Virus genome (UHGV): UHGV-0140617
Length of the DNA: 34,960 nt
DNA from: a virus
Direction: 5' to 3' (one strand)
Under the pieces are notes generated by a model. It had not been told where the DNA came from and did no database searches. It worked only from the letters and a program-made list of their open reading frames with translations. How positions within the stretch are numbered: position 1 is the stretch's first letter; every line of letters begins with the position of its first letter. Below are positions 3,576 through 34,910 of the stretch, one piece after another. The position numbers and the translations under genes are program-made.

Positions 3576-3577
3576 GA

Positions 3578-4336
3578 TTATCCTCTCAGAAGTGAAGCGC
3601 CGGGGAACCCGCCATAATCCAGCTGTTCATTCTCTCCGAAGCGAGGTTTACAGCCCGTTGACAGCAATCCGGAGCAAACATCCTGTGAAGGATCGTCCAC
3701 CCGATTGCCGTCTTTATCGAACCAGCCGTTTTGCCCGGCGTAGGTGCAGCCGTTCCCGGTTTTGTACCAGCCACGCATGCACCACGTGCACATTGGCTGA
3801 ATTTGCCGGGTCGGAATGAGTTGCCCGCGCAGATCGGCTGGACTGGAAAGCTCAAATTCTACAGTTTCATCGTCTGATCCTGATTTACGGTCGATGTAAT
3901 AAACCTGTTTGCGCTCCTCGTTGGGATTCGCAGTCTGGTTCCCATCAGGGAAGTTTCTGGCGTCCAGATAGTGTGCGAAGGTGTCATGGATGATCACCTT
4001 TGCTTTAGCCATCCCCTGAAATCTTCGGCACAGCGCGCCAATCGTGCCGCTGATGTTTGCAACGGTGAGAGACGGTCGTGAACACTGGCCGTCACTGCTG
4101 ACAGATATGCCGGTCAGTTCATACGGCCACGCGCCATACTCCTGCCCCTGCCACCACACCGACTTCGGCTCAAGTTTTGACTCGTCGCCGCCTGCGGCGA
4201 TGATTTCCGCCTCGGTATGCGGGATTGTCTCGTTGTGAAAGCGAAGAATACCTGCACCGAAAGCTGAGCCGTCCACCTCGATCAGGCGGACGCGCTTACC
4301 CGGCTCCAGTTTCTGGACATCAGATGAAATACTCAT
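3578..4336 (-). CDS. L: Minor tail protein L
   Basis: Start taken at internal ATG 4334-4336 (MSISSDVQKLEPGKRVRLIEVDG...), giving lambda gpL-like length; C-terminal Cys cluster (CTWCMRGW...C...C) as in lambda L; ATGA overlap with M stop. Confidence 0.8.
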   Translation of the reverse strand: MSISSDVQKLEPGKRVRLIEVDGSAFGAGILRFHNETIPHTEAEIIAAGGDESKLEPKSVWWQGQEYGAWPYELTGISVSSDGQCSRPSLTVANISGTIGALCRRFQGMAKAKVIIHDTFAHYLDARNFPDGNQTANPNEERKQVYYIDRKSGSDDETVEFELSSPADLRGQLIPTRQIQPMCTWCMRGWYKTGNGCTYAGQNGWFDKDGNRVDDPSQDVCSGLLSTGCKPRFGENEQLDYGGFPGASLLRG

Positions 4337-4673: not shown

Positions 4674-7600
4674 TTAAACTCCCTTGATTAATCGCCACAG
4701 AGGCGAGCCCGGCATGCTGGCCTGTTCGTTAATGACGCCAGTGATGGCATCCTTAAGCTGCCTGCCTGCTGCTCCAGCAGTACCCTGACTGGCCGCCTGG
4801 GATGATCCGCCCTGAATATTGATATCGCCGAAGTTAACTGAAGGCATACCACCGGAGACCTGAGGAGTGCCAACAGCCCGAACGCCAAGCGAACCATCAG
4901 CGGCGCGCGTAAGCGGCATAATGGCTTCCGGACCAGCTTCGGCAAAAACCCCTGCACCTTTGGCAAAAGCAAACAGCTGAGGCGTCTGAAAAACGCCATT
5001 GCTGTAAGCGCTCAGGGACGGAGAGTCGTAAACATTACCCTTCGCATTAAAGGTAAAGTTCGCGCCAGCATTCTGAATAGCGGTACCGCTGCTGGCGGTA
5101 GCGGCTGACGAGGCACCAAAACTGAACAGTGAACCAATTGAGCTAACGCCATTAGCAACAGCCATATTCACCAGAACGTTCTGGATAATCTTCAGTACGC
5201 TGACGCCCCAGTCCTTCCAGCTATCAACGTTGCCATTGAGCATGTCGGTGATCGTGGTGACCGCGCCACCCATAGCCTGCTTCATGCCGTCAGCGGCCAT
5301 GGAAGAATAATCAGTAGCTTCGTCCACCCAGTTCGCATAACCCTCAGACAGTCCCGTCATCCAGTCGTCACGCTGCGCATCAGAAGCTGCGTAATATCCC
5401 TCCTGGTCGCGCAGGCGCTCATCGAGATAGCGCTTATTAAGTGCCAGTCCCTGCTGATAGAACGTCTCATCGATTTCACCAGCCTGACGCTGGCGGAGAA
5501 GATCGGTATTCTTCTGCTCGAACTCCTTACGCAGATTGAACTGCTCCTGAAGTCTTTCACGGAACCTGGTACCCTGCCCGTAACCCAGCAGTTGCCCTTC
5601 ATTAGCTGCTCGGGCGCTGGCGTTACTGTCGGCGAGGTTGGCTTCGTAATTTCGCAGTTGCTCACGTAATTTAACCTGGTCAATCAGCGCAGCATTCTGC
5701 AATAACGTCTTTTTCTGGGCTTCTGTCAGAGAAGCAAGCTCGCCCTGGCTGACCTGGTATTTAACCTTCGCCAGTTCAGTATTCTGGCCTTGCAGGGCAA
5801 TCTGCTCTTTTTGCTGTTTGATCAGCTTGTCATAGGCATCAGCTGTTTTTTCCGCCTCGGATTTCCCGCCCTTATGGCGGCTTGAGTCACGAATAGCTTG
5901 CAACTGCCTGGCTGACTCAACTTCCATGCTGACATACTTCTCACGCCAACCAGCAGGGAGATTAAGGTCAGATGCATCGAATTCCGCCTGCTTGCGGGTT
6001 TTGTCCAATCCCTTAAGACCGGACAACTCAAGCTGTCGCTGCGCCTTGTCTATAGCTTGCTGCTGCTTATTATCAAGTGCAGGAAGTACAGGCCCTGCAT
6101 ATTTTGGTGGGGACACTGCTGTAGACTGTCTGGAAACCTTGTTCAGACGGTCATACATCTCTGTAAGAGAACTTACGGCGCCAGCCATTTCTACTGTTTT
6201 ATTTATAGCCTGATCAGTTATGTCGTTTATTAACTGTTGTGTTTGCTTTCTTTTATTGAGCATTTGCTCAAGTCGGCCTTCTTCAACCGCAAGTTCTGAA
6301 GCAAACTCTGCTGATTTCTCAACCGCATCGTTATACAGCCATGTTCCATCTGAAGCAGAATTGGCTGCTAATTTTGCGTTATAAAGTTGATTGGATAATT
6401 CAGCAACTTTCTGCTTCTGCTGTTCAATCGCACTATTTTGAGCATCCAGTGAAATATTCGCCTGTCCAAGGTTGGCGGATATCTGCGTCTGAGACATTGA
6501 TTTCAGATTATCTCGTACCTGCTCGATTGTGTCCGCATATTGGATTGCAGATTCCCTGGCTTGTTCTTGGCGTTGATACATCGTGTACCACGCCCCAGCA
6601 CCCAACATTAAAATTCCTGGCAAACCACCAACTAACGACAAAAGCCCCGTAGCGCCAGACTTGAATAAATTCATTACCGATGTTGATCGGTTGAGTGCTT
6701 CTTGCGACGCTGATACTGCTTTATTTGACTGAACGAGAGTGGAATTGGCGGCTATCATTTCACGCCGTTTGGCAATAGAATTTTGTGTAGCTGTCGCTTC
6801 TGCATTTGTGTTTTTTGCAAGTTCCAACTCGGATAGCGAGAGCTGATAAGCACGCTCGGCAGCAATCGCATCTGCTGCCGCCTTTCGTTGTGATTGGGTA
6901 GCAGATTCAGCCCTTGCAGATGCGAGCGCAATTTCGTTCTTTCTGGCATCTATTAATTGCGCCGTTTGGTTCCCAAGATCGCCAAACATCCCTCCAAGAT
7001 AGCGAGCTCCACCTATTGCAGCCAAAGCTCCGGCAGCCGTAGCCACAGTGTCGATATTGTCAGAAACTGTATTCAATACAGCAACAAGAGCACTTGTCGC
7101 ACCAGTAGCTTCATTAGCTCCACCTACCCATGCCATGAAAGCATTTTCGACTTTCGTCGTGGCAGCAGAAACGGTCTGCGGCATTGCCTCAAATTCACCA
7201 CGCATAGTGCCAAGTTGACTTATCAGGGCCGGGACAACTTTATCTGCGGTTAGCATCCCCTGATCGGCCATTGCCTTCAGATCTTTACGAGCTACACCCA
7301 TCCCAGCGGCCAGCGCACGGATAACTCGATCACCGTTTTCGTTAACAGAGTTGAATTCCTCGCCCCGCAGAACGCCCTGAGCTAATGCCTGACTAAACTG
7401 GGTGATAACAGAACTTGCCTCTGCCGTGCTGGCGCCGGATAGCTTTAGTCCAGTAGAAATGGCCTCGGTTACATCCAGAACTTGCTGCGAACTGTATCCG
7501 TATTCACGCATTGATGCGGCGGAACGCGCAAAAAGACTCGCATTATCAGAGAAGGCGGTTCCGGTTCGTTGGCTAATATCCATCAGCGCCCGCTGAGACT

Positions 7601-19499: not shown

Positions 19500-19546
19500 T
19501 AAGCCCCCTCTTAATTGCTGTGAGTCCTCTCAGAAATGAGGGGAAT

Positions 19547-19571
19547 AAAAAAACCCGTTCGAATGAACGGG
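19547..19571 (-). terminator. Strong intrinsic terminator immediately upstream of the holin (minus strand)
   Basis: cccgtt(19554-19559)/aacggg(19566-19571) 6-bp stem followed on the minus strand by UUUUUUU (plus A7 19547-19553). Confidence 0.7.
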
Positions 19572-20290
19572 CCAGAAAAGGAGAATTTTGCATTACTGAA
19601 GCGTTAACGCGATGCCGGGTGCCTCCCGGTGGGCCTTTGGCTGACAAACCATGACCCGTGAGCACTTTGCATGTCACTCCCTGACATTGTTTACTGTCAG
19701 TTTCACCCCTCCGCTTAGGGGGATTCATCACAACAACTTCAAACGAGAGCTTTTACTGAATGCTCTTTAACATTAGGACCGATAAAGAAAACCTGCAAAC
19801 AAATAGCCCAATGATTTCAAAAGAGTCAGGCTTCACGGGCTGGATTTATCAACAAAGCACGCAGTGAGTGATACCCGTGAGCCTGAAATGAAAAAGGCCA
19901 CGCAAAAGCGCGGCCCTAAGAAGATATATATATTTTGTTAATTCAGCGGAACATCTGGCATGGAGCGATCCAGTGAAGCGTTAATCAACGCCTTAATCGC
20001 GTTACACACCTGATAAAATCCGCCAGGCTGAGATAATAGCCATTATACGATGACCACAGATATGTTGCTCCTGGTAAGATCAGTATATATGCTTGAGTCA
20101 ACATAGTATGTGGAACATAAGTTGCTGTAACTGGACGATACATCGCGCAGATGAGATTAATCACGAATCAAATTTGACATTTGAATCATGACGGTTAAAT
20201 CCGCCTCCCGGGCGTGGCCTGCGGATGTGCGAAGTACTGTACAGAGAGATCGCGCGCCCCAGGTGCAACTAATTAATCATGGGAGAGTTT

Positions 20291-20825: not shown

Positions 20826-21247
20826 GATATTAGCCTTTATATGCTACAACATTCACTACCGCAGTGATAACCAGAAGATATATTTTAACTAATAGTTCTT
20901 TTGGTTTTAGCATCAGATTGCAATTCACTTTAAAAGCAATAAAAATGAACATTTCTTATCTGCTTACATAGGGAATCTAAAATAATATAATTTCTTTATA
21001 TTATAACATCAGCGATTTTTGGGATGTTGTTAACTTTTACGAATGCACTTAAGCGTGCAAAAAAACTACAGAGGTAAACAGACAAATGACATTTATAAAA
21101 TAATCATTTCAACTGTTCTATCTAGTGATTAGACTCAGACATCTGTTCAGATCGGTTTGAGCAGATGTCGAGTTTCTGAAAAACCAATATATCTACTCAG
21201 GCTTTCACCGTCTTCGCTATCGTATATTGGCCTCAATCAGAAAAGTA

Positions 21248-21460
21248 TCAGGCAGCTACAACGTTTTCGGCTGACGGCCCTTTTGCACCAGCAGTGATGC
21301 TGAACTCAACTTTTTGGCCTTCATTCAGCGTTTTAAAACCACCACTCTGAATGGCAGAGAAGTGTACAAACACATCTTTACTACCGTTATCAGGGGTAAT
21401 AAAACCAAAACCTTTAGATTCATTAAACCATTTTACTAAACCAGTCATTTTATTAGACAC
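21248..21460 (-). CDS. Cold-shock protein, CspA family (prophage-borne paralog)
   Basis: 70 aa [38 protein letters not shown]... with RNP1/RNP2 motifs; ORF-track start is GTG (21458-21460), alternative ATG at 21446-21448. Confidence 0.9.
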
Positions 21461-21996
21461 AGGTATTTCCTTAAATTCTATGTAGCCTTACGGCGAAAAG
21501 GTTTTCGCACACAATCTAATTAGTAACGATAAGAAGGCTCAAAAGAAAGGATTATCTGTGGATAACGCTTGAGATGAGAACTGCTTTACTAAACCGCTTT
21601 AATGGGTCTGTGTACCTAACCAACCACTCATTAATCACACAACCCACAAACAATAGCAAGTTATTTTTTCATTAAATTGTTCGGAACATCTTAGAAATGG
21701 ATGCCGTGACAGCATAATCAGTGATTTTTCCCCTCGATAACATATGAGTGATCGCCTCTGTACGAGCAGAAACAGAATACATCAGTTTTATCAATCACCT
21801 ATAAAGAACATTCAACCACTCTGAAAAAATCCAGTAATGAGTTTTTTGTTCTATGCTTTCGTAGTCCATGGAATTGGTGGTAACAAAGGTAACCATTTCA
21901 TCCAACTCAAAAACAATATTTACAAAACTATGCTACTTTTATTTCATATATGTGTATTATTAGGTAAAGGAAATTAGAACTTTCAAAGGAGAAAAA

Positions 21997-23350: not shown

Positions 23351-24709
23351 TCAGGCTTTTGCATACCGACGCGGTTGTGATTTTTGCTGCGAGGCTGATT
23401 TTGATTTCGCTTCTTCCTGGTCAATCGGCAGAAAATGCCCGTTGTAGAAACGGCGGTACACGGTTCCAAGAACGCCGTTACGCTGTTTGGTGATGTTAAT
23501 TTCCGCGATCCCTTTCGCCGGCGATTCGGGGTTATACACTTCATCGCGATAGAGCATCATGATGATGTCAGCATCCGCCTCAATTTCGCCGGAGTTCTTC
23601 AGGTCAGAGTTCATGGGACGTTTATTCGGTCGGGATTCCACGCCTCTGGAAAGCTGGCTCAGGGCCAGAACGGGAGTGCGGTTTGTTTTGGCAAGTCGCT
23701 TTAATCCCTTCGACAGTTCACCCACCGCGAGGTCATAGCGTGCCGTGCTCTGGATCTTAATGAGTAACAGATAATCGATAACCACCAGCGCGGTTTCTGG
23801 ATGAGAAATCTGATGACTGGTTGCCGTTTGCTCGATCTGCTCAAGCGTCAGATCTGTGGCATCGACCATCCAGATATTGCGCCCGGTAAGATGCCCGATA
23901 CCTGTAGATAACCTTGCCCAGTCTTCATCTTCAAACTTCGCGGCTGCTTTGAGCCTGGACACTGACATACCACCAGCAGCAGATACCATTCGCTCGCCAA
24001 TCTGGATGTTGGCCATCTCCATGCTGAAAAACAGTACGCCATGCCCCTGCTCTGATACCTTATCGATAATGTCCAGTGCCAGCTCGGTTTTCCCCATCGA
24101 CGGACGAGCCGCGATGAAGACCAGATCTGTCGGTTCAATGCCGCCGGTTTTAGCGTCCAGTTCTTCAATGCCGGTCATCAGCGGTTTGGCCTCTTCCAGC
24201 CCCTGATTTCTTGCATCTACCCGGTCAATTACTGCAGGTAAGATTTCATCAATATGCACAGGTTGAACGGTATCAGGAGTGAGTGAAATTGAAGCCATGG
24301 CCTCCTGCGCGGCTTTCAACGCTTCGACTGCGTTTTCACCATTGGCAGCATTGCGAATGCCAGCCAACGCTGTCTCGATTACAGCCTCGGCGTCACGAAC
24401 GGCAGCATTACGTTCCAGTGTGGAAACGTAATACGTCAGAGCTGATTTAGCCCATGCGATACGGCTTGACTCGAGTATCGTTGCGCTGTGTTCTGGCATG
24501 ATCTCACACAGCAACAGCGGATCTATCACTCCGGTCCCCCGAGCCTGACGACAAATGCCGGAATATATTTCACGGTACTGACGGACAGAGAATGCGCTCG
24601 CCGGCATACGGGAAAGAATGCCCAGAACCTCAGGATCGGTATTGCGCAGAAAAATCGCGCCAATTACCGCACCTTCCAGATCATTATTTTTCCATACCGG
24701 AGTCATCAT
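23351..24709 (-). CDS. Replicative DNA helicase (DnaB family)
   Basis: 452 aa; Walker A ARPSMGKT, and RecA-like core motifs. Confidence 0.9.
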   Translation of the reverse strand: MMTPVWKNNDLEGAVIGAIFLRNTDPEVLGILSRMPASAFSVRQYREIYSGICRQARGTGVIDPLLLCEIMPEHSATILESSRIAWAKSALTYYVSTLERNAAVRDAEAVIETALAGIRNAANGENAVEALKAAQEAMASISLTPDTVQPVHIDEILPAVIDRVDARNQGLEEAKPLMTGIEELDAKTGGIEPTDLVFIAARPSMGKTELALDIIDKVSEQGHGVLFFSMEMANIQIGERMVSAAGGMSVSRLKAAAKFEDEDWARLSTGIGHLTGRNIWMVDATDLTLEQIEQTATSHQISHPETALVVIDYLLLIKIQSTARYDLAVGELSKGLKRLAKTNRTPVLALSQLSRGVESRPNKRPMNSDLKNSGEIEADADIIMMLYRDEVYNPESPAKGIAEINITKQRNGVLGTVYRRFYNGHFLPIDQEEAKSKSASQQKSQPRRYAKA

Positions 24710-25587
24710 GCGGTTACCCCTGCAGCAATTGCGCGATAGCTTTCCCAGCCAAATGCCAGGCGGTTTCGTCCACCATCGGTAACCCTGTCCACGATGCGCT
24801 CACCAATGGACTCTTTCAGTTGCTCAAAGGTCAGGTTGCTGATCAGGATTGTCGGAAGTACGCTCTCGTAACGGGCATTAATAACCTCCTGCAGGATGGT
24901 CATTTCCGTCGGACTACCAAATTGCACGCCCACCTCGTCGATAATCAGCAGATCCAGTGATGCGAAACGCTCGATAACGTCTTCCTCGGTACTGTCAGCA
25001 CCATGGCGCCACGTGTTTTTTACGGCACGGGTCAGGCGCATAACATCGGTGATTTGCACACTGGCCAGATACTCACGAACAATGCTCTTTGCCATCGATA
25101 CCGCCAGATGGTTCTTTCCTGTCCCGCAGTTCCCGGTCATCACCAGCCCCGTTCCTGCGTTAAGACGCTCCGACCAGCTGTTGACGTAGCGCTGGCAGGC
25201 TGCAAGGTTTTTTGCGGCACCCTGATTAACCGCCTGATAATTACTAAACTCACAGCCCTCAAATCGGCGGGCGATCCCGACGTTGTCCAGCAGGTCAGAT
25301 ACCTGCAACGCACGCAGCCCGGAATCGACTGCCGCCAGCTCATCGCGCACGCACCCCGGGCACAGGGAATGTTTAACATTTTCGGTACCACGAAACGCTT
25401 TACCAGTGAGCGACATGCGCTCATAGTCGCCATGTTTTTCGCACACTACGGTGTGGACTTCGCCTGACTCCCAACTTCCCCACTGCCACGGTTTTTTATG
25501 TTCTACAGCGAACGCCAGTTCCTCGCGAAGTCCTTCGCGTTTCGCCAGTAGTGAATCCCTTTCTTCGCGTTGTTTGATGTTTAGCAT
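24706..25587 (-). CDS. Helicase loader, DnaC/IstB-like AAA+ ATPase
   Basis: Walker A GNCGTGKNHLA, Walker B LLIIDEVG; start at ATG 25585-25587 with SD; overlaps the DnaB-like start. Confidence 0.85.
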   Translation of the reverse strand: MLNIKQREERDSLLAKREGLREELAFAVEHKKPWQWGSWESGEVHTVVCEKHGDYERMSLTGKAFRGTENVKHSLCPGCVRDELAAVDSGLRALQVSDLLDNVGIARRFEGCEFSNYQAVNQGAAKNLAACQRYVNSWSERLNAGTGLVMTGNCGTGKNHLAVSMAKSIVREYLASVQITDVMRLTRAVKNTWRHGADSTEEDVIERFASLDLLIIDEVGVQFGSPTEMTILQEVINARYESVLPTILISNLTFEQLKESIGERIVDRVTDGGRNRLAFGWESYRAIAAGVTA

Positions 25588-25601
25588 TGTGTTTCCCCTT
25601 G

Positions 25602-26498
25602 TCACCAGTTGCAGTCTGTTTGTCCGTAATCCTGTTCACTGAAGCCAGATACCGGAAGCACATTGCGACGCCCACCTCCGGGAGCTGATGGAGTTTGCCA
25701 GGCTTCTTCGAAATGGCGATCGGGCCCAAAGAACGTTGCCGCCTGTTTGACGTATTCAGTACCAAGCTTGCCCGTCGTGCGGATGTAGGCCGCGTAGCGC
25801 TGCACGCCCGCCAGCAGCTCTGATGCCGTAGCGCCGTCGGCGATGCGAGCCTTCCAGTGTTTGTAAGCCGTTGCTTTCGGATTGCCACCAGCGCGTTTTG
25901 GGTATGCTTGCCAGGCGGCTTCGAACTCTGGAGAGTATTCCTGTCGCGCTGCTGGTTTCGTACCACTGGTTTTTCCAGATGATTTACCACTTCCGGAAAT
26001 GGCTGTCGGTGTAGCGGCGCCAGCCGATGCACCAAGAGTGTTTTTAATCTCTGTAGTAGTCTTTGTTGTAGTAACCATTAGAGAGCGGGCGTTTTTCCCC
26101 TCATCCATCGGTGCATCCTGCACTTGTCGATCAGGGCAACTTGCCCCGTTCGATGAGGGCACCTGTTCCGCATCATTAAGCAACTCGCAATCATGATTGA
26201 TGGTGTAGTAATTTGTCCGGTCATGTAGGGACTTATTGAGCTGCTCAACATCGAGACATCCCTGTTTGACGAGTGATGTAAAAGCGCGTTTAACTGTATC
26301 TGCTGACCAGAACGGGAATTGTTTTACCCACGACTCATAGCTGTTGAACACCCAGCGGCGACCAGCATGGATAACTCCCTGCTCTTTGTCGTTAATCCAG
26401 TAGTTAACCTGCTGCAATACGATCGCTTCGTTCAGACCGATGCGCATAGCAAGTTCAGGGTTGATGACCAGAGGGCGAAAATTAAAAAGCATGCTCAT
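25602..26498 (-). CDS. Replication initiator / replisome organiser (O-like)
   Basis: 298 aa; N-terminal replisome-organiser-like domain, low-complexity Thr/Ser/Gly linker, C-terminal domain; position upstream of the loader. Confidence 0.75.
   Translation of the reverse strand: MSMLFNFRPLVINPELAMRIGLNEAIVLQQVNYWINDKEQGVIHAGRRWVFNSYESWVKQFPFWSADTVKRAFTSLVKQGCLDVEQLNKSLHDRTNYYTINHDCELLNDAEQVPSSNGASCPDRQVQDAPMDEGKNARSLMVTTTKTTTEIKNTLGASAGAATPTAISGSGKSSGKTSGTKPAARQEYSPEFEAAWQAYPKRAGGNPKATAYKHWKARIADGATASELLAGVQRYAAYIRTTGKLGTEYVKQAATFFGPDRHFEEAWQTPSAPGGGRRNVLPVSGFSEQDYGQTDCNW
26098..26159. repeat. Iteron-like repeats (GATnAGGG) within the O-like gene - candidate origin
   Basis: tcgatcaggg (26127-26136) and tcgatgaggg (26150-26159) direct repeats 23 bp apart, inverted copy ccctcatcca (26098-26107), palindrome gtgcatcctgcac (26111-26123). 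Confidence 0.4.
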
Positions 26499-27379
26499 GC
26501 TGCACCCGCTAACTCAGTATCGTGAGTAAACTTGCCATCCCAGCGCTTCTTCATCGGAAGATGCCCCTTGAGATAGTGTCGATAAATCCATACCGCGCCT
26601 TTGCGCAGCAGGATTGGCTTGAAGGTGTCGCGCATCTCACCGTCGTCCTGTTCCACCTGCCCTGGCCGTTCGGTGAGGTATTGATCACGCGCATAGTGAT
26701 GAACCCGCCACAGTGGACGCCTGGCCTTTGGCTGGTCGTCGTAAAGCCAGTTATGATCAGCCAGAAACGCGTTAACCTGCTGGACGTTGACGCCGTTCAG
26801 TTGCTTACAGAACTGGCAAGGGGACATTCCCGGTTGGAACAGGTTTTCCAGGTGTTCGATGTACTGCGCCTGACGGTGAACGTATCCGATAGCTTTGTTC
26901 TTCGCTTCATACTCGTCCGCCCATGCGCGCGCAGCAGCCGCCGGGTCGTTGAAGTCTGGCAGACTGCTGCTGACTGGCGCCAGCTTGCCGGTACGGAAGT
27001 CGAGAAAGGTCTGGTTAACCTGCAAACGAAACGACGGTGAGATCCACCCGGCGTACTCGATGGCCAGCAGTTCGTGGGCGAACGTGCCCGGCGCAATGCC
27101 GCCATTCACGGTGTCGATTGGTTTTTGAGCAGAGTGTAAATTTACATTCTGGTTCTCTTTCAATAAATTACGCTTAAGCTCTTCAATGAGTTCTTTCGTG
27201 CTTTTTCGGCGTAACCATTGGCTCGGAGATTTATCCTCACCCGCTCCGCTCGCCTTGTGCAAAGCGTTCAGGTTAAATCGCCCGGCGGCATCCGTCGTGA
27301 TTTCAACGCCTGCAATAACAGGCAGGCTTTCAACATTAATGCTTGAAACGTTCGGATGTTTATTGGTATTGTTTTTCAT
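26495..27379 (-). CDS. KilA-N domain protein with antirepressor (ANT/KilAC)-like C-terminus
   Basis: About 294 aa from ATG 27377-27379 (MKNNTNKH...); KilA-N hallmark FNLNALHKASGAGEDKSPSQWLR. Confidence 0.7.
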   Translation of the reverse strand: MKNNTNKHPNVSSINVESLPVIAGVEITTDAAGRFNLNALHKASGAGEDKSPSQWLRRKSTKELIEELKRNLLKENQNVNLHSAQKPIDTVNGGIAPGTFAHELLAIEYAGWISPSFRLQVNQTFLDFRTGKLAPVSSSLPDFNDPAAAARAWADEYEAKNKAIGYVHRQAQYIEHLENLFQPGMSPCQFCKQLNGVNVQQVNAFLADHNWLYDDQPKARRPLWRVHHYARDQYLTERPGQVEQDDGEMRDTFKPILLRKGAVWIYRHYLKGHLPMKKRWDGKFTHDTELAGAA

Positions 27380-27398
27380 GGAATGATTCCTCGCAGTA

Positions 27399-27683
27399 TT
27401 ATTCCGCAGATATGCAAACGAAGTCAGAACAGGCCGGGTTGGCGCTCTCCGTTCCTTCCCGGCCTTTTCTTTGCCTTGCGTTCTGCTGTTGTCGTCTGCC
27501 CAATAGCCCACTGTCGCGCACGGAAAAGACAATCAGCGAACATGCTTCCCTTCCGGCTGGACTGAGAGCATCGCCGGTAATAATCAACACCATGCTCTGC
27601 CCCCCCCTGGCGACTTCTGCCGGAAAACCTTCGCCAGCCAGCGCCTCGGTGATGTGCTTTTTGATGAATTCTTCCGGTGACAT
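27399..27683 (-). CDS. Hypothetical protein in cII position (reading frame uncertain because of G8 tract)
   Basis: ATG 27681-27683 lies 1 nt after the cro stop (coupled); contains a G8 homopolymer (plus C8 at 27600-27607); downstream sequence is low complexity. Confidence 0.35.
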   Translation of the reverse strand: MSPEEFIKKHITEALAGEGFPAEVARGGQSMVLIITGDALSPAGREACSLIVFSVRDSGLLGRRQQQNARQRKGREGTESANPACSDFVCISAE

Positions 27684-27684
27684 G

Positions 27685-27900
27685 TCAAGCCTTTACTGAT
27701 GGGTGAGGGAAAATTTCTTCGATAAACACCTTCCGGTCTGACGTACTCAAAGCGGATGCGATGAGATGGCATGTCTCAATATCTGGAACTCTCCGACCAG
27801 ATTCGTAGTGACAAATGGAGCTTTGTGTATGGCCTATGCTCTTCGCCAGCTCGCATTGAGTTAACCCACTGGCAATACGCATATTTTTAAGATTACTCAT
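27685..27900 (-). CDS. cro: Cro-like HTH regulator
   Basis: 71 aa XRE-type helix-turn-helix (ASGLTQCELAKSIGHTQSSICHYESGRR); divergent from the repressor gene across an operator region. Confidence 0.75.
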   Translation of the reverse strand: MSNLKNMRIASGLTQCELAKSIGHTQSSICHYESGRRVPDIETCHLIASALSTSDRKVFIEEIFPHPSVKA

Positions 27901-28010: not shown

Positions 28011-28670
28011 ATGAAAACAGAATGGTATGAACTGGCTAAAGCCAGAATGTCTGAAGTGGGGGTTACGCAGGCCCAACTTTCAGAGGAATTGGGTGTTACA
28101 CAAGGTGCTTTGAGCCACTGGCTTAACGGCAGGAGATCGGCTTCGCTTGCTGAAATAGGTTCGATTTTTCGAATCCTTGGCATTGTTGGTGCAACCCTCA
28201 ACATAGATGGTTCATTCACCATCGGACCAGAGCAATTCTCGGCACCTCCTAAACCTCATTATGAATATCCTGTTTTCTCTCACGTTCAGGCAGGTATGTT
28301 TTCTCCAGAGTTCAGAACCTTTACAGAACGCGATGCAGAAGGCTGGGTCAGTACAACCAAAAAAGCCAGTGAACATGCATTCTGGCTTGAGGTTGATGGA
28401 CACTCCATGACAGCCCCAACCGGCTCAAGACCAAGCTTCCCAGCCGGAATGCTCATTCTTGTTGACCCTGAAGAACCAGTTGATCCTGGAGATTTCTGTA
28501 TCGCCAGACTTGGCGGGGATGAATTCACTTTTAAGAAATTGATTAAAGATAGTGGACAGGTCTTTCTTCAGCCGTTAAACCCACAGTTTCCAATGATACC
28601 CTGCAACGAGCATTGCAGAGTCGTTGGCAAGGTGGTCGCATCACAATGGCCTGAAGAGACATTCGGATAA
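28011..28670 (+). CDS. cI: CI-like repressor (HTH plus S24 LexA-like peptidase domain)
   Basis: 219 aa; N-terminal HTH ([23 protein letters not shown]), Ala-Gly cleavage site (VQAGMF), catalytic Ser (VDGHSMT) and Lys (FKKL); no SD upstream, consistent with a leaderless transcript. Confidence 0.85.
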
Positions 28671-28692
28671 AACATTCTGTAAAATACTCACT

Positions 28693-28716
28693 CCCGGCTT
28701 ATGCCGGGATTTTTTT
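28693..28716 (+). terminator. Intrinsic terminator after cI
   Basis: cccggc(28693-28698) ttat gccggg(28703-28708) followed by T-run (atttttttgt). Confidence 0.8.
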
Positions 28717-28798
28717 GTCTGAATATCAATACCACTAATTAAATACACTTTGAAATCAAACGCTTTCAATTAATAATCAAATTTTATTTCATTTTGTA

Positions 28799-28858: not shown

Positions 28859-29152
28859 ATGAACATAACCTCCCAACCAAACCCAGCAAGCCAGGAATTT
28901 GATATTCACGCCAAGCTTAGATCAGCTAATTCGCACTGGCCTTATTGCTATGCTGTCCAGCATTTCGAGAAAGAATTTAATTACCAATTTAATACAAGTT
29001 TTGTTGACGAAATGGAGTTCGCTGTTTACGAACGTATCGATAATTATTTCGTTTTGGTTGATTTCTTTAAGTCATACGATGAAGCATGTGATGATGCTAA
29101 AAAAATCATTGATGACCACCCTGATCTTAAAAAAATGTTCCCTGCTATTTAA
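28859..29152 (+). CDS. Hypothetical acidic protein (first gene of early-left operon)
   Basis: 97 aa; SD ACGGAG 9 nt upstream; no recognisable motif. Confidence 0.5.
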   Translation: MNITSQPNPASQEFDIHAKLRSANSHWPYCYAVQHFEKEFNYQFNTSFVDEMEFAVYERIDNYFVLVDFFKSYDEACDDAKKIIDDHPDLKKMFPAI

Positions 29153-29223
29153 TTAAACCATTAATTAACAAAAAACATCATAAATAACACCTTAACCGGT
29201 GGGGAACAACTCACCCTGAGGAA

Positions 29224-29520
29224 ATGCAGATGAATATTACCGTCAAAAGTGAAGTCTTAAATAACAAGAGCCATTCAGTTAATCAGGATGACGACATTCT
29301 TTATATAAACAAGGCACACAAAACAGCAGAGTGCGCCAATAAATACGCGCATGAGCTACGTACAGAGTTTTTCCAGTTACTGATGCCAGCAATCACGCGT
29401 ACAGATGTGAAGGTAGCAGGAAGATTCACCTCGTTACTTAATGAGCTTTGCTTCATGACCCAAATGACCATGGAGAATTCATCCAAGGGGGGGGGCAATA
29501 ATGACGTTTCTGAAAGATAA
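29224..29520 (+). CDS. Hypothetical protein, apparently truncated at a G9 tract
   Basis: 98 aa as sequenced; with 8 G instead of 9 (29487-29495) the frame continues to TAA 29612-29614, overlapping the next ATG (TAATG). Confidence 0.45.
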   Translation: MQMNITVKSEVLNNKSHSVNQDDDILYINKAHKTAECANKYAHELRTEFFQLLMPAITRTDVKVAGRFTSLLNELCFMTQMTMENSSKGGGNNDVSER

Positions 29521-29613
29521 AGCAGCACACAATACTGCAAAACTTTTTGCCTCTTATGGAAATAGTTATCTGCATATTGCAAACCTTTTTCTGCGCAAGG
29601 CTTACGGGCGGTA

Positions 29614-29976
29614 ATGACAATGAAAAACAATACCATTGAAATTTATCGCCGCCGCGTTGCTATTGCGACATTAAACCGAATGAAGCGCAAGACAGGAGGT
29701 TATTGCCTCTCCGTAAATATGCCCGATAACAATATCCAGGTTATCGAGATTAACGAAGAATCAATGATGAAACTTTTGCTGCGCTTCGAAAAACAGGCTC
29801 GGACTGAATTCAACACAGAAGCGGAAACATTTCTTCGCCAGACGTATATGAAAAGCGTCGATATCAATGAACACACCGAATATCTGACCGAAACCGGAAA
29901 GATGATTGTTGACGAGATTTTTGCGGAATTAATTAAACACGCGAAAGAGAAATACGTATGTGGAGGAATTAACTGA
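29614..29976 (+). CDS. Hypothetical protein
   Basis: 120 aa; stop overlaps next ATG (TGATG). Confidence 0.5.
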   Translation: MTMKNNTIEIYRRRVAIATLNRMKRKTGGYCLSVNMPDNNIQVIEINEESMMKLLLRFEKQARTEFNTEAETFLRQTYMKSVDINEHTEYLTETGKMIVDEIFAELIKHAKEKYVCGGIN

Positions 29977-30205
29977 TGGCCTCACAACAAACAATTATTC
30001 ACGGAATGCAGACCCCCCCCCAGTCCTCAACGTGGATCTGCATGTGCTTCCGGATTTCACCGGACGCGTGGTTCTTTACATCGAAAAAGGGCGTGTGACA
30101 TGCGACCGCCGTCTGCTCGACGACGAACATATTTGCGCACTGGACACTTTTATCGAAATGGCTCGCGAAATGGAGCTACGTCTTGAGGAAATATCGAATG
30201 ACTGA
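29976..30205 (+). pseudogene. Hypothetical gene interrupted by frameshift at C9 tract
   Basis: ATG 29976 with SD GGAGG reads MASQQTIIHGMQTPP then shifts frame at C9 (30013-30021); the downstream frame (...VLNVDLHV...EEISND) ends ATGACTGA-coupled to the next gene; 10 C would restore one ORF of about 76 aa. Confidence 0.5.
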
Positions 30206-30620
30206 CAACCGTACCGTAAGCGCGATTGACCTCGCGTTACAGAAACACGATACGCCAGTTGGCCCTTTGTTCGTGGCAGTACGACACGGGCGCACAAAAA
30301 AATGTTTCACCCTCAACACTGCAATCCGTTATCTGGCGTTCTTCATGACTACCGAAGCTTTCAGTCGTTCCGGCTTCGAGCAGCGCTACCCGGATGTGCA
30401 GACCGTCTACCCTCTCAATCCAGAACTGAATTGTTGGCAACGAGGAGGCACAACAGTTGAGTACATCGGAGCCCACCAGCGCTGTATTCGACGTCTTCGC
30501 CGCATTCTGGCCATTAAGCGTGACATGCAGAAGTGGTGTGAGAAGTGGGACGCCATGCATGACCGCTTCGTTAAAGAGGTTGACGCACTACAGGCCAGTA
30601 AACCGGAGGGTATTCGATGA
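30198..30620 (+). CDS. Hypothetical protein
   Basis: 140 aa from ATG 30198 (MTDNRTV...); the track ORF starts earlier at TTG. Confidence 0.5.
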   Translation: MTDNRTVSAIDLALQKHDTPVGPLFVAVRHGRTKKCFTLNTAIRYLAFFMTTEAFSRSGFEQRYPDVQTVYPLNPELNCWQRGGTTVEYIGAHQRCIRRLRRILAIKRDMQKWCEKWDAMHDRFVKEVDALQASKPEGIR

Positions 30621-31195
30621 GCAGCAATAACGAAGCGCCAGAAACTACGCCAAACGGCATCAAAATCGGAAATCGCGTTATTGGCTGGTCTGGTGCGGTT
30701 AAACAATTCGATGGTCCACGCTTTGACTCCCGCAACTCAGAGGGTCTGCGTTGGTTGGCCTGCATTATGGATGCAGTTGCAGCTGGTTGGATTTCTTTAG
30801 GCACAGAGAAAGAACTCATTCTATGGCGCTGGCTGGTAGCAACGGTATTCATCAATGAAGAGAAGGATAAGAACGGCGCTATCGAAATCCCGAACGAAGA
30901 CGGCGGCGTTGATATCGCGGTCATTTACTCGGGTAAGAAAGGCGACCTGAGCATCTACCCCGGCCCGCTGCGCTTTTCTCTAGCTAACCATGTTGAAGGT
31001 ATCGCGATCGAGAAATACGGCGCTGAGGAAGGTCCAGCGCTGGCGCTGCGCATGTACAAGGACATGGTGATTGCAGATCCCGGGTATGGATTCAGGATGT
31101 CCCCTTTTGGGCGCGAGGGGCTTGAGATACTTCACGATGACTGCATCGGAATGATCAACACCAACGGCATGCCAGAAGCGCATGTGATTCACTAA
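30617..31195 (+). CDS. Hypothetical protein
   Basis: 192 aa, no recognised motif; ATGA-coupled to the upstream gene. Confidence 0.5.
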   Translation: MSSNNEAPETTPNGIKIGNRVIGWSGAVKQFDGPRFDSRNSEGLRWLACIMDAVAAGWISLGTEKELILWRWLVATVFINEEKDKNGAIEIPNEDGGVDIAVIYSGKKGDLSIYPGPLRFSLANHVEGIAIEKYGAEEGPALALRMYKDMVIADPGYGFRMSPFGREGLEILHDDCIGMINTNGMPEAHVIH

Positions 31196-31205
31196 GGAGA
31201 AAGCC

Positions 31206-31784
31206 ATGTTTATTTATACCGATCTGCTCCGAGCCGCTATGTGCTGCACTGCCAGTCAGGAAGACACCCGGAAAATCCTGAGAGGTGTACGCCTCACGCC
31301 AACTCATATTCAGGCAACGAATGGTATTGCTGCAGTTTCAATGAAGCATGATGCCAAAACAGAAATGGAAGGCGTATTTATCCTGCACGGTGATATTCCG
31401 ACTAACGCAGAAGGAACCGTATTCCAGCAAATTGGTAGCCAGTGGATTGCTGCTCATATGGACGACTACGAGCGCCCGGTTGGGCATAACGAGCTTGAAC
31501 TGGTTGAAGGCAAGTTTCCAGATCTTAGCAAGCTGCTGCCGACAGAGGAAGAGCCGTGTGCTGAGTTCCCTCCTTTCGCTGCTGAATTGCTTGCTTTGCC
31601 TTATCGCATGTTTGGTAATGAATTTGCGTCAATGCCCGTTAATTTCAAACTCTTTGGCCCTGAAAAACCATGTCAGGTACTGTTTAACGTTGCTGTTAAC
31701 AGCTTCTACGGCGATCCGGTGCTGGTAATCATGCCGATGAAATCGACGGTGTTCGAACTGCACCGTAAGGCGATGGAAGAATGA
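31206..31784 (+). CDS. Hypothetical protein with possible beta-clamp (DnaN)-like domain
   Basis: 192 aa; C-terminal PVLVIMPMK resembles the DnaN C-terminal VVMPMR motif and ILRGVRL...IQATNG resembles a clamp-domain segment; similarity recalled from memory, not computed. Confidence 0.45.
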   Translation: MFIYTDLLRAAMCCTASQEDTRKILRGVRLTPTHIQATNGIAAVSMKHDAKTEMEGVFILHGDIPTNAEGTVFQQIGSQWIAAHMDDYERPVGHNELELVEGKFPDLSKLLPTEEEPCAEFPPFAAELLALPYRMFGNEFASMPVNFKLFGPEKPCQVLFNVAVNSFYGDPVLVIMPMKSTVFELHRKAMEE

Positions 31785-31903
31785 AAAAGATGTATGTGCG
31801 CTCCCTGTGGGCGATGTTCTTCTCAATTCTGTTTGGTATTGGCGCTGCAGCCGGTGCGATAGGTTTTATCGGTGCAATGAAAATGTTGGCAGGAGTTCTG
31901 TGA
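31781..31903 (+). CDS. Small glycine-zipper membrane peptide (40 aa)
   Basis: MKKMYVRSLWAMFFSILFGIGAAAGAIGFIGAMKMLAGVL; ATGA overlap with the upstream stop and TGATG overlap with the downstream start; below track cut-off. Confidence 0.4.
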   Translation: MKKMYVRSLWAMFFSILFGIGAAAGAIGFIGAMKMLAGVL

Positions 31904-32127
31904 TGAAAATTGACTTCAACGACTACGGGGCGGTTGCATCGGTAACGATCACCAGCACTATTTTCGAGTTTCGCAAACATAACCGGGTGGTTGACACCAC
32001 TCTGTTTCTGGTGCCGGGAGTGGTCAGCGAACGGCGCGGAGCATTCTTCATGAAGACATTTATTTCAGGGAAAACCCGCGATGCACTGCGGGCTTATAAA
32101 ACCGTACAGCGTGAGGTGAAACGATGA
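31903..32127 (+). CDS. Hypothetical protein
   Basis: 74 aa from ATG 31903 with SD AGGAG. Confidence 0.45.
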   Translation: MKIDFNDYGAVASVTITSTIFEFRKHNRVVDTTLFLVPGVVSERRGAFFMKTFISGKTRDALRAYKTVQREVKR

Positions 32128-32336
32128 GCAAAGGCCAGCAACCAGCCTATCCATGCCCGCGCATCGATACTCCCCGTGGCATGACTTACCGCCAGCACCT
32201 CGTTGTGCAGATAGCGCCGGTAATGCTCACGAATTTTTTTAGCAATGATGCCTGGCAGGATTACGACGACCTAGCCAGAACTCTGGTGATGGCTGTAGAT
32301 GCCATCATCGAAGCTGAGCGGGAGACGGCGAAATGA
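32124..32336 (+). CDS. Hypothetical protein
   Basis: 70 aa, ATGA-coupled on both sides. Confidence 0.45.
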   Translation: MSKGQQPAYPCPRIDTPRGMTYRQHLVVQIAPVMLTNFFSNDAWQDYDDLARTLVMAVDAIIEAERETAK

Positions 32337-32794
32337 GCAAAATCACTAACCCTGTCGTGCTTATCTATAAGCGCGAAAACAGTGATACCTACGCTGTCGC
32401 GATCACCAATGGCAGCCAGGACTATCACGACGCCGTTCTGATGGCGACGATGGAACCGGATATGGCCGGTGATGATGTAGATACCTGGAGCAAAACCGGT
32501 TACTACATGGCGGCGGAGATTCAGCGCTTACGCCAGCAGTTGATCGCCCCTTTAAGTATTGGGGAGTTAATTCAGCGTCTTGAATCGCAGACTAGCGACC
32601 ACTGGGAGAGAGTGGTTTGCGATGTCACTTCTGGTAAACCGTTGACCATCACCCTGCCAGATATCACGTCAAAGGCGTTCTGGAGCGGTACCGGGAAAAG
32701 CGAGGTATTCCATCCGGAAAGCTATAAGCGCTGGGTAAAAGAAGCTATAGAACGAGCCTGTGTTATCGCAGGGATCGGTGTGGAGGTGAAGTGA
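32333..32794 (+). CDS. Hypothetical protein
   Basis: 153 aa, coupled within the operon. Confidence 0.5.
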   Translation: MSKITNPVVLIYKRENSDTYAVAITNGSQDYHDAVLMATMEPDMAGDDVDTWSKTGYYMAAEIQRLRQQLIAPLSIGELIQRLESQTSDHWERVVCDVTSGKPLTITLPDITSKAFWSGTGKSEVFHPESYKRWVKEAIERACVIAGIGVEVK

Positions 32795-33156
32795 TGCAAA
32801 AATCATTTATCAATACAGATAATCTGAACTCTGTAAATGACTGCCTCCAGCAACTGGTAATCGCTGAAGAAACACAACTGAGCATTGAAGACCAGTTGTC
32901 CAACTCAAACAGTAGTAGTGAATGGAGTGCGTGGCGCAAAAAGGCAGAGAATGCCTTACGGGTTGTAAAAGCGAAGCGTCGCATCATCACAGCCCGTCTT
33001 GCTGTTCTCCGCCAGATTGAAAAAGAAAACAACATGCAACTCCACCAGCGACACAACGATTACCTGGTTGCTGAGTTGAAAAAGATTGTTACGCCGTCGT
33101 CGTTTGAGCGTTGCGTTCGTCGGGTTGATGAAAAATTGGAGGGATCAATTGAATAA
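32791..33156 (+). CDS. Hypothetical protein (Ser-rich linker, basic helical C-terminus)
   Basis: 121 aa, coupled to the upstream gene. Confidence 0.45.
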   Translation: MMQKSFINTDNLNSVNDCLQQLVIAEETQLSIEDQLSNSNSSSEWSAWRKKAENALRVVKAKRRIITARLAVLRQIEKENNMQLHQRHNDYLVAELKKIVTPSSFERCVRRVDEKLEGSIE

Positions 33157-33295
33157 GGCATTTGAAATCTGGGTGCGTCAGCGGTACGGAAACCGCTACG
33201 ACCTCTCGAGGGATCAGGAAGGATTCTACTGCCGGGAAGTGATTAAACGAATGTTCGAAACGTGGTGCCACTGCCGTGGCCTGAACGTGGTGTGA
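33128..33295 (+). CDS. Hypothetical small protein
   Basis: 55 aa from ATG 33128 (MKNWRDQLNKAFEIW...), overlapping the upstream gene end. Confidence 0.3.
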   Translation: MKNWRDQLNKAFEIWVRQRYGNRYDLSRDQEGFYCREVIKRMFETWCHCRGLNVV

Positions 33296-33304
33296 GGCGG
33301 GTAT

Positions 33305-33541
33305 ATGAGCAATGTTATTCAGTTAGCTCCTAACGATTGGGTTTGTGAAAGTGTTCTGATCGCGGTGACCGGGCTCAAGCCCGGTACCATCCTCCGGGCC
33401 AGAAAAGAGTGCTGGATGGTTGGGAGGGAGTATATCCACGTATCACCTGACGGGAATCCAAAACCTTCCAGTGAGTGCATGTATAACAGAAAGGCTGTAG
33501 ATGCCTGGGTCGCTTCAATGAAAAGCAAGCAGCCAGGATGA
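33305..33541 (+). CDS. xis: Putative excisionase
   Basis: 78 aa small basic protein immediately upstream of the integrase. Confidence 0.55.
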   Translation: MSNVIQLAPNDWVCESVLIAVTGLKPGTILRARKECWMVGREYIHVSPDGNPKPSSECMYNRKAVDAWVASMKSKQPG

Positions 33542-33596: not shown

Positions 33597-34910
33597 ATGG
33601 ATAAAATCACATATCCAACAGGCGTCGAAAACCACGGTGGCAGTCTGCGCATCTGGTTTAATTTTAAAGGTAAGCGCGTCAGGGAAAACCTCGGTGTCCC
33701 TGACACCGCTAAGAACAGGAAGATCGCCGGGGAACTGCGGGTGTCGGTATGCTTTGCCATCCGCACGGGAAGCTTTGATTATGCTGAACGGTTTCCAGAT
33801 TCACCTAACCTTAAAATTTTTGGGTTGGGCAAGAAAGAAATCACAGTGAAAGAACTCGAAGAGAAGTGGCTGGATCTGAAAAAGATGGAAATCAGCGCGA
33901 ACGCGCACAAACGGTACGAGTCGGTCGTGGCAGTTGTTGTACCGCTGATCGGGGCTACCCGACTAGTGACAGCGATTGAGAAAGAAGAGTTGCTGTACAT
34001 CAGGAAAGAGCTTTTGATGGGTTATCAGTGCGCGGCAAAGGGCAGGATCCCTGTTAAGGGCCGGAGCGCGGTCACCGTCAATTACTACATGACGACTATC
34101 GCCGGAATGTTCCAGTTCGCCGCCGATAATGGGTACATAAAGGCAAATCCCTTTGATGGAATAAAGCCATTAAAAAGGGCCAGGGTGGAGCCAGATCCGC
34201 TCAGCCGTGATGAATTCATCCGTCTGATAGATGCGTGCCGGCATCAGCAGACGAAAAACATGTGGTCACTGGCGGTGTACACAGGTGTTCGTCACGGAGA
34301 ACTGGTTTCCCTGGCATGGGAAGATATAGACCTTGAAGCGGGTATAATAACAATTCGCCGTAATTATACAAAACTGGGCGAGTTCACACTACCGAAAACG
34401 GACGCCAGTACGGATAGAGTGATACACCTCATTCAGCCAGCCATCGATGCGTTAAGGAATCAGATGGAAATGACCAGACTCGGGCAGCAGTATCACATCA
34501 ACGTGCAATTGCGTGAATATGGTCGAACAACGCAGCACAGCTGTACATTTGTCTTTAACCCTAAGATAGTCCGTCGAAGTAAGGATGTGGGGGTTATCTA
34601 CAAGGTTGATTCGTTTGGTGACTCGTGGGACGCAGGGTTAAAAAAGGCGGGGATCAGGCATCGAAAAGCTTACCAGTCGCGCCACACTTACGCGTGCTGG
34701 TCACTGGCCGCTGGCGCCAATCCAAGCTTTATAGCCAGTCAGATGGGGCACGCTAGTGCGCAAATGGTTTTCAATGTGTACGGCGCATGGATGGCTGACA
34801 GCAGCGCAGAGCAGATCGCAATGCTGAATCAGAAGCTGGCAGATTTTGCCCCATTGATGCCCCATAGCCACGATAACAGTACGGGAGGATTATTAAAATC
34901 AGTAAGTTAA
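33597..34910 (+). CDS. int: Tyrosine integrase (phage integrase family)
   Basis: 437 aa; C-terminal catalytic region with R...HxxR...Y pattern (AYQSRHTYACWSLAAG...GHASAQMVFNVYGAW); terminal gene of the prophage arm. Confidence 0.9.
   Translation: MDKITYPTGVENHGGSLRIWFNFKGKRVRENLGVPDTAKNRKIAGELRVSVCFAIRTGSFDYAERFPDSPNLKIFGLGKKEITVKELEEKWLDLKKMEISANAHKRYESVVAVVVPLIGATRLVTAIEKEELLYIRKELLMGYQCAAKGRIPVKGRSAVTVNYYMTTIAGMFQFAADNGYIKANPFDGIKPLKRARVEPDPLSRDEFIRLIDACRHQQTKNMWSLAVYTGVRHGELVSLAWEDIDLEAGIITIRRNYTKLGEFTLPKTDASTDRVIHLIQPAIDALRNQMEMTRLGQQYHINVQLREYGRTTQHSCTFVFNPKIVRRSKDVGVIYKVDSFGDSWDAGLKKAGIRHRKAYQSRHTYACWSLAAGANPSFIASQMGHASAQMVFNVYGAWMADSSAEQIAMLNQKLADFAPLMPHSHDNSTGGLLKSVS

Follow-up and report, generated by a model that had tools for sequence, protein, structure and literature searches.

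A phage protein of one and a half clamp domains as a possible accessory decoy or adaptor for clients of the bacterial sliding clamp

Our analysis of the virus genome UHGV-0140617, a lambdoid-type prophage of Citrobacter freundii, revealed an early gene whose product of 192 amino acids (aa) derives from the bacterial beta sliding clamp (DnaN), with a resemblance far beyond chance. The protein consists of one complete clamp domain and half of another, and the pieces it keeps, domain II plus the second half of domain III, are, as judged from the aligned sequences, those that build the pocket in which the clamp receives its clients. We propose, with a probability of roughly 0.4, that it is an accessory, non-sliding decoy or adaptor that would dock host proteins carrying a clamp-binding motif via this retained pocket. 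The whole stretch of DNA analyzed, 34,960 nucleotides (nt) in length, is called the window here; the clamp-like gene is followed in it by genes for a 40-aa membrane peptide and a 74-aa protein, and the exact 192-aa protein is on record as QHX03393.1 / WP_162648439.1. The beta clamp is a central hub of bacterial replication and repair, and an antibiotic target.

Results

Relation to the sliding clamp

Among the PHROGs families, the window protein matches the short phage 'DNA polymerase III (Pol III) beta-like' family, phrog_3007, over its full length (expectation value, E, 8.6e-37; aa 1-181 on profile positions 3-187 of 190), and its aa 16-127 match positions 146-260 of phrog_947, 'DNA polymerase processivity factor' (E 4.1e-5). 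Comparison of a 101-member family alignment with Escherichia coli DnaN by hhalign placed aa 6-113 on residues 137-251, which are domain II, at E 1.2e-12; in an alternative match, aa 122-180 fell on the later half of domain III (residues 317-366; E 1.8e-4, probability 48%). The predicted fold is that of clamp domains, with two beta-alpha-beta-beta-beta motifs per domain. The sequence-only reading had suspected a clamp-like protein, and the profile and fold comparisons bear this out.

Sequence searches of the PDB, both with the single sequence and with a 20-sequence profile, returned no match, so that the homology is visible only by profile-profile and fold comparison. The window protein has no Pfam match at E <= 0.1 and lies under every Pfam and TIGRFAM threshold, scoring 12.4 bits on TIGR00663 where the cut-off is 137.65. 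Among the 101 relatives, PF02767 (DNA_pol3_beta_2) is matched by 19 at E <= 0.01 and PF02768 (DNA_pol3_beta_3) by a single one.

The likeness extends to short motifs, the family consensus DVRYYLNG...ATNGH...DGKFPD...N..YL...IMPMR standing beside DVRYYLNG...ATDGH...DGRFPD...N..YV...VMPMRL in E. coli beta. Many family members terminate in IMPMR(L), the same as beta, and 51 of 89 end no more than three residues from the MPxR motif, as E. coli beta does. In the window protein, the stretch ILRGVRL...ATNG, which had been likened to a clamp strand, occupies aa 24-40, with ATNG aligned to T172-G174 of the clamp. The segment PVLVIMPMK, at aa 171-179, likewise has its IMPM aligned to M362-M364, but it is not the C terminus for which it had been taken: 13 residues follow it, STVFELHRKAMEE, predicted with low confidence to form a helix.

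Parts kept and parts lost

The following segments of the 192-aa protein can be assigned, with their coordinates in the window:

aa 1-113 (31206-31544, plus strand): complete clamp domain, equivalent to DnaN domain II, with all eight strands and helix 1 (hhalign; DSSP of the model)
aa 118-180 (31557-31745, plus strand): half-domain, made up of a helix and three strands, that corresponds to the second beta-alpha-beta-beta-beta motif in domain III of DnaN (about residues 317-366)
aa 181-192 (31746-31781, plus strand): clade-specific C-terminal extension, TVFELHRKAMEE (family alignment; predicted local distance difference test, pLDDT, 62-64)

In the complete domain, R22, L25, T38, G40, P105, K109 and L110 are equivalent to beta R152, L155, T172, G174, P242, R246 and V247, and the second, DNA-facing inner helix is replaced by an eight-residue loop, GDIPTNAE, at aa 62-69 (DSSP of the model, hhalign). 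The half-domain comes after an FPD linker, and its end, V174-I-M176-P177-M178-K179, corresponds to V360-V-M362-P363-M364-R365 of beta. The C-terminal extension, absent from true clamps and most family members, includes a phenylalanine, F183, that is conserved in the Enterobacterales clade (as xF[ED][LM]); the extension may fold back on the protein's own pocket or drive oligomerization.

Relative to beta, the protein has lost domain I, about residues 253-316 of domain III, and one inner helix (hhalign, model). Coverage by hhalign is confined to DnaN residues 137-251 and 317-366, and no region of the 192-aa protein matches domain I. Three tandem clamp domains over some 366 aa characterize DnaN; the phage protein, at 192 aa, does not have them. 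In beta, the ring is closed by domain I together with the first half of domain III, and these two elements form the dimer interface. Both sides of this known interface, domain I and the region of I272/L273, are absent by sequence from the phage protein.

Could such a protein still encircle DNA? One may imagine a true but unconventional sliding clamp, in which half-domains pair across a two-fold axis and four protomers (4 x 1.5 domains) close a six-domain ring of D2 symmetry, which would be loaded by the host loader and used by host Pol III on phage DNA. Because each clamp domain consists of two similar halves, related by an internal two-fold pseudo-symmetry, pairing of half-domains could rebuild a whole domain. 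This picture is in keeping with the clamp fold and with the retention of the pocket that receives delta and alpha, and Foldseek also picks up phage clamp-like proteins of greater length (about 240-266 aa), suggestive of a continuum of sizes. On the other hand, the canonical ring-closing elements are absent, each protomer would contribute two inner helices compared with six in three-domain beta, and the oligomer itself is a product of geometric reasoning. We consider a ring of this kind rather unlikely, and the distribution of the gene, described below, bears on it further.

Conservation of the client pocket

In beta, the client pocket is formed by the adjoining strands T172-L177 and V360-R365 together with the linker P242-V247, and it receives the clamp-binding motif of polymerases, the clamp-loader subunit delta, Hda, MutS/MutL and translesion polymerases. 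A 2024 review (PMC11139829) lists R152, L155, T172, G174, H175, R176, L177, P242, R246, V247, V360 and M362 for subsite I, and H175, N320, Y323, V344, M362, P363, M364 and R365 for subsite II. Every listed residue except V344 has an aligned counterpart in the segments that the phage protein retains.

The mean column identity of the 101-member alignment is 20%, and nine of the 14 positions with the strongest conservation fall in the pocket and have the residue of E. coli beta (hypergeometric P ~1e-7): R22 (R152), G40 (G174), M176 (M362), P105 (P242), L25 (L155), P177 (P363) and T38 (T172), together with Y128 (Y323) and H41 (H175) of the family. The family consensus keeps H175, Y323 and N320. 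In the window protein itself, subsite I is identical at 7 of 12 positions, conservatively replaced at two and changed at three, and subsite II has three identical residues, one conservative replacement, three changes and one residue that is unaligned. The abundant Salmonella version of the protein (L047 3438-4004; 188 aa, matched to the family by hhalign at E 4.8e-53) carries VVMSCRD in place of IMPMR, and the C-terminal strand of its pocket is therefore altered.

Where conservation is concentrated also matters for the idea that the protein is a poison of the host clamp. Its free edge strands would pair with monomers of host beta or else cap a clamp that has opened, blocking closure or loading, so that replication stops, with an outcome like that of the Staphylococcus clamp-targeting proteins. 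A protein built of clamp domains with exposed sheet edges, and expressed early amid genes of the host-takeover type, would be suited to such a role. Poisoning leaves unexplained, however, why the pocket, and not the edge strands, is best conserved, and the phage, for its part, seems to depend on the host's clamp and Pol III. We regard it as very improbable.

A stand-alone phage family

The short phage 'Pol III beta-like' proteins form a stand-alone family and are not truncated clamps. An exhaustive hidden Markov model search found 414 clusters (50% identity) at E <= 1e-3, nearly all of 175-210 aa, and tblastn with a divergent member located the gene in 248 cultured phage genomes. Among close relatives, the clamp-like gene is under purifying selection, with a ratio of nonsynonymous to synonymous substitution rates (dN/dS) of 0.07-0.17. 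The impression of a half-length clamp was accordingly right as to size, the protein being about half as long as DnaN, but no truncation has taken place: it is a full-length member of a selected family of about 190 aa. Carriers include siphophages of Salmonella, E. coli and Klebsiella (Skatevirus LPST10, Kagunavirus XY2), Hafnia phage yong1, Serratia phage Eta and Burkholderia phage Bcep781, where the protein is gp15.

Depositors in GenBank have labeled these proteins 'DNA polymerase III beta subunit' or 'sliding clamp', and RefSeq records bear a PHROG-derived label, 'RusA-like Holliday junction resolvase' (L044 4857-5528, L045 5001-5549, NC_070824, NC_025458, NC_054640 and NC_054649). Neither the window protein nor its relatives have a RusA match in Pfam, and the fold is that of a clamp; a resolvase identity was thus rejected, and the RefSeq label looks like a propagated misannotation. 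Within the searchable literature on truncated or DnaN-like phage clamps, decoys with clamp-binding motifs, and the 'polymerase III beta' of Kagunavirus and Skatevirus, we found no functional study of the family.

Two lytic siphophages, Kagunavirus XY2 (L053 4983-5504) and Shewanella phage 1/41 (L045 5001-5549), carry the clamp-like gene moron-like, as a lone opposite-strand gene amid structural genes. In another relative (L042 1978-2555; IMGVR_UViG_2663763285_000004), the gene is split over three frames and is therefore a likely pseudogene, and both the peptide gene and the 74-aa gene are absent. Fels-1 (NC_010391 2299-2849) holds only the C-terminal part of the clamp-like gene, plus the 74-aa gene.

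These patterns cut both ways for a ring of four protomers. In favor of it, the phages that carry the gene have no annotated DNA polymerase, and in Pseudoalteromonas phage C7 the gene adjoins a primase-polymerase. Its position is nonetheless that of an accessory gene and not of a replisome component, and among close relatives it is dispensable or mosaic, with a frameshifted copy in L042. Since the canonical ring-closing elements are gone and the gene behaves as an accessory one (in the pL operon, as lone opposite-strand copies, and frameshifted in L042), we favor the non-sliding decoy or adaptor.

Setting in the prophage

The features of the window that define the setting of the gene, identified by Pfam and by annotation of the window's open reading frames (ORFs), are as follows:

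23351-24709, minus strand: DnaB-like gene
24706-25605, minus strand: DnaC/IstB-like gene
26495-27532, minus strand: KilA-N/ANT gene
27685-27900, minus strand: cro-like gene (Pfam)
28011-28670, plus strand: cI-type S24 repressor gene (Pfam), heading a plus-strand string of small genes
28692-28709: terminator-like site
28750-28777: promoter-like site
28859-33541, plus strand: early-left (pL-type) operon, from just past cI to the excisionase gene, with the clamp-like, peptide and 74-aa genes
31206-31784, plus strand: clamp-like 192-aa gene (phrog_3007, short phage 'Pol III beta-like' family)
31781-31903, plus strand: gene for the 40-aa single-pass membrane peptide
31903-32127, plus strand: gene for the 74-aa protein (phrog_1001)
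33305-33541, plus strand: DUF1233 excisionase gene (Pfam)
33597-34910, plus strand: integrase gene (Pfam)

The structural genes of the window lie on the minus strand. The early-operon setting that had been proposed fits this layout of cI and cro, plus-strand string, excisionase and integrase, and it places the clamp-like gene in the pL operon, outside the replication module. The prophage encodes DnaB- and DnaC-like proteins, and a screen of its early region and replication module found no DNA polymerase gene. The clamp-like ORF is preceded by a strong Shine-Dalgarno sequence, AAGGAG (31194-31199). As had been described, the ATG of the Gly/Ala-rich, hydrophobic 40-aa peptide overlaps the TGA of the clamp-like gene in an ATGA at 31781-31784, and the peptide's stop overlaps the start of the 74-aa gene in a TGATG at 31901-31905.

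The operon layout is repeated in an E. coli relative (L001), Providencia phage PSTCR3 and a Salmonella prophage (L047). In the first of these, E. coli NZ_LR536431, the closest E. coli relative of the early operon, an IS5 transposase insertion and a ParE-family toxin-like gene (3339-4319 and 5433-5603) lie upstream of the clamp-like gene. In the window, the gene immediately upstream (30617-31195) also encodes a protein of exactly 192 aa, which belongs to phrog_1515, a family with no assigned function. As a candidate second clamp piece it was rejected, since hhalign against the clamp-like family gave a probability of 0.2 and the PDB held no match.

Two RNA families from Rfam were recognized elsewhere in the window. 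The cspA thermoregulator, a 5' untranslated region, has a full-length match at 21176-21624 on the minus strand (200.9 bits, E 4.9e-54); because this match overlaps a 70-aa ORF (21248-21460, minus strand), the prophage probably carries a cold-shock-protein gene with its own RNA thermosensor. STnc100, a gammaproteobacterial small RNA, has a match at 19542-19759 on the minus strand (76.8 bits, E 6.9e-15), within about 2.4 kilobases that hold no large ORF, between the lysis/late region and the replication genes.

Downstream gene order and the 74-aa protein

We compared the downstream genes of 41 related loci, drawn from genomes and IMG/VR, together with Providencia phage PSTCR3 and Salmonella contigs:

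clamp-like gene, peptide gene, 74-aa gene: 21 loci, including the window
clamp-like gene, 74-aa gene, no peptide gene: 16 loci, PSTCR3 and the Salmonella prophage
clamp-like gene, peptide gene, no 74-aa gene: 1 locus
clamp-like gene with neither downstream: 5 loci (in one, the clamp-like gene is frameshifted)

A possible module of clamp-like protein and membrane peptide had been suggested. The two genes are not a fixed pair, since the peptide is absent from 16 related loci, PSTCR3 and the common Salmonella prophage, in all of which the 74-aa gene follows directly. The peptide gene is thus an optional insert between the other two, and the clamp-like protein does not need the peptide.

The constant neighbor is the 74-aa protein, which follows the clamp-like gene wherever it is present in the loci examined and co-varies with it from Citrobacter to Morganella and Proteus. 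Its family, phrog_1001, comprises 605 clusters, some Salmonella clusters occurring on at least 1000 contigs, and the 74-aa protein of the Salmonella prophage (L047 4001-4225) is indexed in 4212 blocks of the collection. The AlphaFold2 model of the 74-aa protein has the order beta-beta-alpha-beta-beta-alpha (pLDDT 90.4) and resembles ACT and bacterial microcompartment (BMC)-type two-layer folds, and no clamp. Its candidacy as the missing half of domain III was rejected on the basis of this ACT/BMC-like model and an hhalign probability of 0.06 against DnaN. The 74-aa ACT-like protein is likely a partner or regulator of the clamp-like protein.

The 40-aa membrane peptide

The peptide begins with a basic N terminus, MKKMYVR, followed by a Gly/Ala-rich transmembrane segment (best 19-residue Kyte-Doolittle mean, 2.09) with the small-xxx-small motifs G21xxxG25 and A24xxxG28xxxA32. 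A GxGxxxG core, of the glycine-zipper kind that had been suggested, is kept in four relatives (L003, L007, L024 and L040) and not in three others (L004, L033 and L035). The comparative sequence data indicate that the ORF is a genuine gene for a single-pass membrane protein under purifying selection: its 14 distinct versions, of 38-44 aa, all remain open and hydrophobic although as many as 57 differences occur over 126 nt, with dN/dS of 0.09-0.45, the gene overlaps on both sides are conserved, and a rival frame by which the 74-aa gene would be lengthened upstream shows no conservation. The exact peptide sequence is annotated in C. freundii on 101 contigs. It matches no family in Pfam, PHROG, NCBIfam or PADLOC and nothing in cultured phages, and we regard it as the product of an ordinary small accessory gene. 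The annotation pipeline PGAP calls several 40-41-aa copies 'sodium:solute symporter' (L001 7182-7304, WP_102046756.1; WP_312656847.1), a name that is spurious for a single helix of only 40 aa.

The peptide shares with type I toxins (Hok, TisB-like) and small phage membrane peptides its length, a basic N terminus, one hydrophobic helix and small-xxx-small motifs. It differs from the toxins in having no sequence match and in lying within an operon by translational coupling instead of on its own antisense-controlled mRNA. The position of the gene in the operon, overlapped on both sides and with no promoter-like site found ahead of it, argues against a type I toxin organization.

This bears on a further alternative, in which the clamp-like protein and the peptide would form a toxin, abortive-infection or exclusion pair, with the peptide depolarizing the membrane in response to a replication event that the clamp-like protein has sensed. 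Such a pair could be read from the tight translational coupling of the two genes and from the conservation of a single-pass membrane protein with small-xxx-small motifs. Yet 16 related loci, PSTCR3 and the abundant Salmonella prophage do without the peptide while keeping the clamp-like and 74-aa genes, the peptide is unmatched in cultured phages, and no separate promoter is available to express the pair in a lysogen. A PADLOC search at E <= 0.1, moreover, returned no match for the clamp-like, peptide or 74-aa proteins or their neighbors, except for a chance-level value of 0.021 for an unrelated 98-aa ORF; no operon protein has a significant match. We therefore give a toxin pair the least credence, as a highly improbable explanation. 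Of the earlier suggestion of a module for host-replication hijacking or abortive infection, the handling of host replication proteins remains a reasonable inference, whereas an abortive-infection module finds neither a PADLOC match nor a promoter of the peptide's own.

Discussion

How might a non-sliding decoy or adaptor serve the phage? The clamp-like protein would be produced early, from the pL-type operon, after infection or induction, and its retained pocket would dock host proteins with a clamp-binding motif. Such docking may draw these proteins away from the host clamp, or it may deliver Pol III or the clamp loader of the host to phage DNA. Recruitment or re-routing of the latter two is plausible, because carriers commonly encode helicase, primase and recombination functions without an annotated polymerase, as does the lytic Skatevirus LPST10, with helicases, a primase and a recombinase. 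Host takeover would then proceed through mimicry of the clamp hub instead of its inhibition. The peptide, inserted between the clamp-like and 74-aa genes and therefore translated by coupling, would be a separate, optional protein of the inner membrane. A more specific form of this proposal is that the protein is a soluble, non-ring copy of the client pocket of beta that titrates or redirects host proteins with clamp-binding motifs (e.g., delta, Hda, translesion polymerases, MutL) and is controlled by its ACT-like partner in temperate Enterobacterales phages; we put it forward tentatively, as a possible but somewhat doubtful refinement.

Several observations weigh against a decoy or adaptor. 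Conservation of the pocket is equally expected of a real clamp that binds delta and Pol III alpha, and a phage that depends on Pol III or delta could itself suffer from their sequestration. For the C-terminal half, the assignment to DnaN depends on the weaker of the two hhalign alignments, that of 48% probability. At three pocket positions conserved in the wider family, the window protein is changed (H175 to I41, N320 to A125 and Y323 to L128), and the common Salmonella variant has MSC instead of MPM; given these changes, the ligand may not be a canonical clamp-binding motif. A scan of all window ORFs, finally, found no phage protein with a convincing clamp-binding motif, the matches being chance-like, such as QAGMF in the cI repressor.

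A clamp derivative of 1.5 domains is widespread: cultured phages carry it by the hundred, and prophages of Salmonella and Citrobacter by the thousand. Because little beyond the client pocket is kept, it may be viewed as a natural minimal-pocket protein. It could reveal how the host replisome is captured or disarmed by phages that have no polymerase, and it could serve as a small, soluble scaffold on which to study or screen clamp-binding ligands. Recognition of the clamp fold also corrects the 'RusA-like' label that has spread in RefSeq phage records. The clamp resemblance is implicit in many phage annotations, and the kind of protein is in this sense already known; in the searchable literature we found no earlier description of a 1.5-domain, pocket-keeping architecture with its own partner gene in temperate Enterobacterales phages.

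The phage protein is homologous to DnaN (PF00712, PF02767, PF02768) over domain II and the final half of domain III, and it has most of the pocket residues and the xMPMR end in common with the clamp. It differs in its length of 192 compared with 366 aa, in having no known dimer interface, in the replacement of one inner helix by a loop, in its extra 13-residue tail, and in the location of its gene in a prophage early operon and not beside dnaA and recF. Its nearest relatives are the other PHROG 3007 proteins (LPST10 gp37, XY2, Eta, Bcep781 gp15, Pantoea phages LIET2 and PSKM), with which it has in common a size of 175-210 aa, the motifs DVRYYLNG, ATNGH, GKFPD and IMPMR, and the predicted fold (Foldseek template modeling score, TM, 0.7-0.77). 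The window protein is set apart by belonging to a temperate Enterobacterales clade with the C-terminal extension, altered equivalents of H175, N320 and Y323, and a dedicated 74-aa partner gene.

Two further systems invite comparison. E. coli beta* (Skaliter et al. 1996), an ultraviolet-induced internal dnaN product of domains II and III, reportedly assembles into a functional ring. Like the phage protein, it dispenses with domain I and keeps the partner-binding pocket, but it retains the whole of domain III, whereas the phage protein is without half of that domain and constitutes a gene family of its own. The clamp-targeting phage proteins, such as Gp168 of a Staphylococcus phage (PDB 7evp), are alike in function only, in interfering early at the host clamp hub, and are related to the window protein neither in sequence nor in fold. 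Whereas they bind the clamp, the window protein is itself clamp-like, and its binding partners would be the clients of the clamp.

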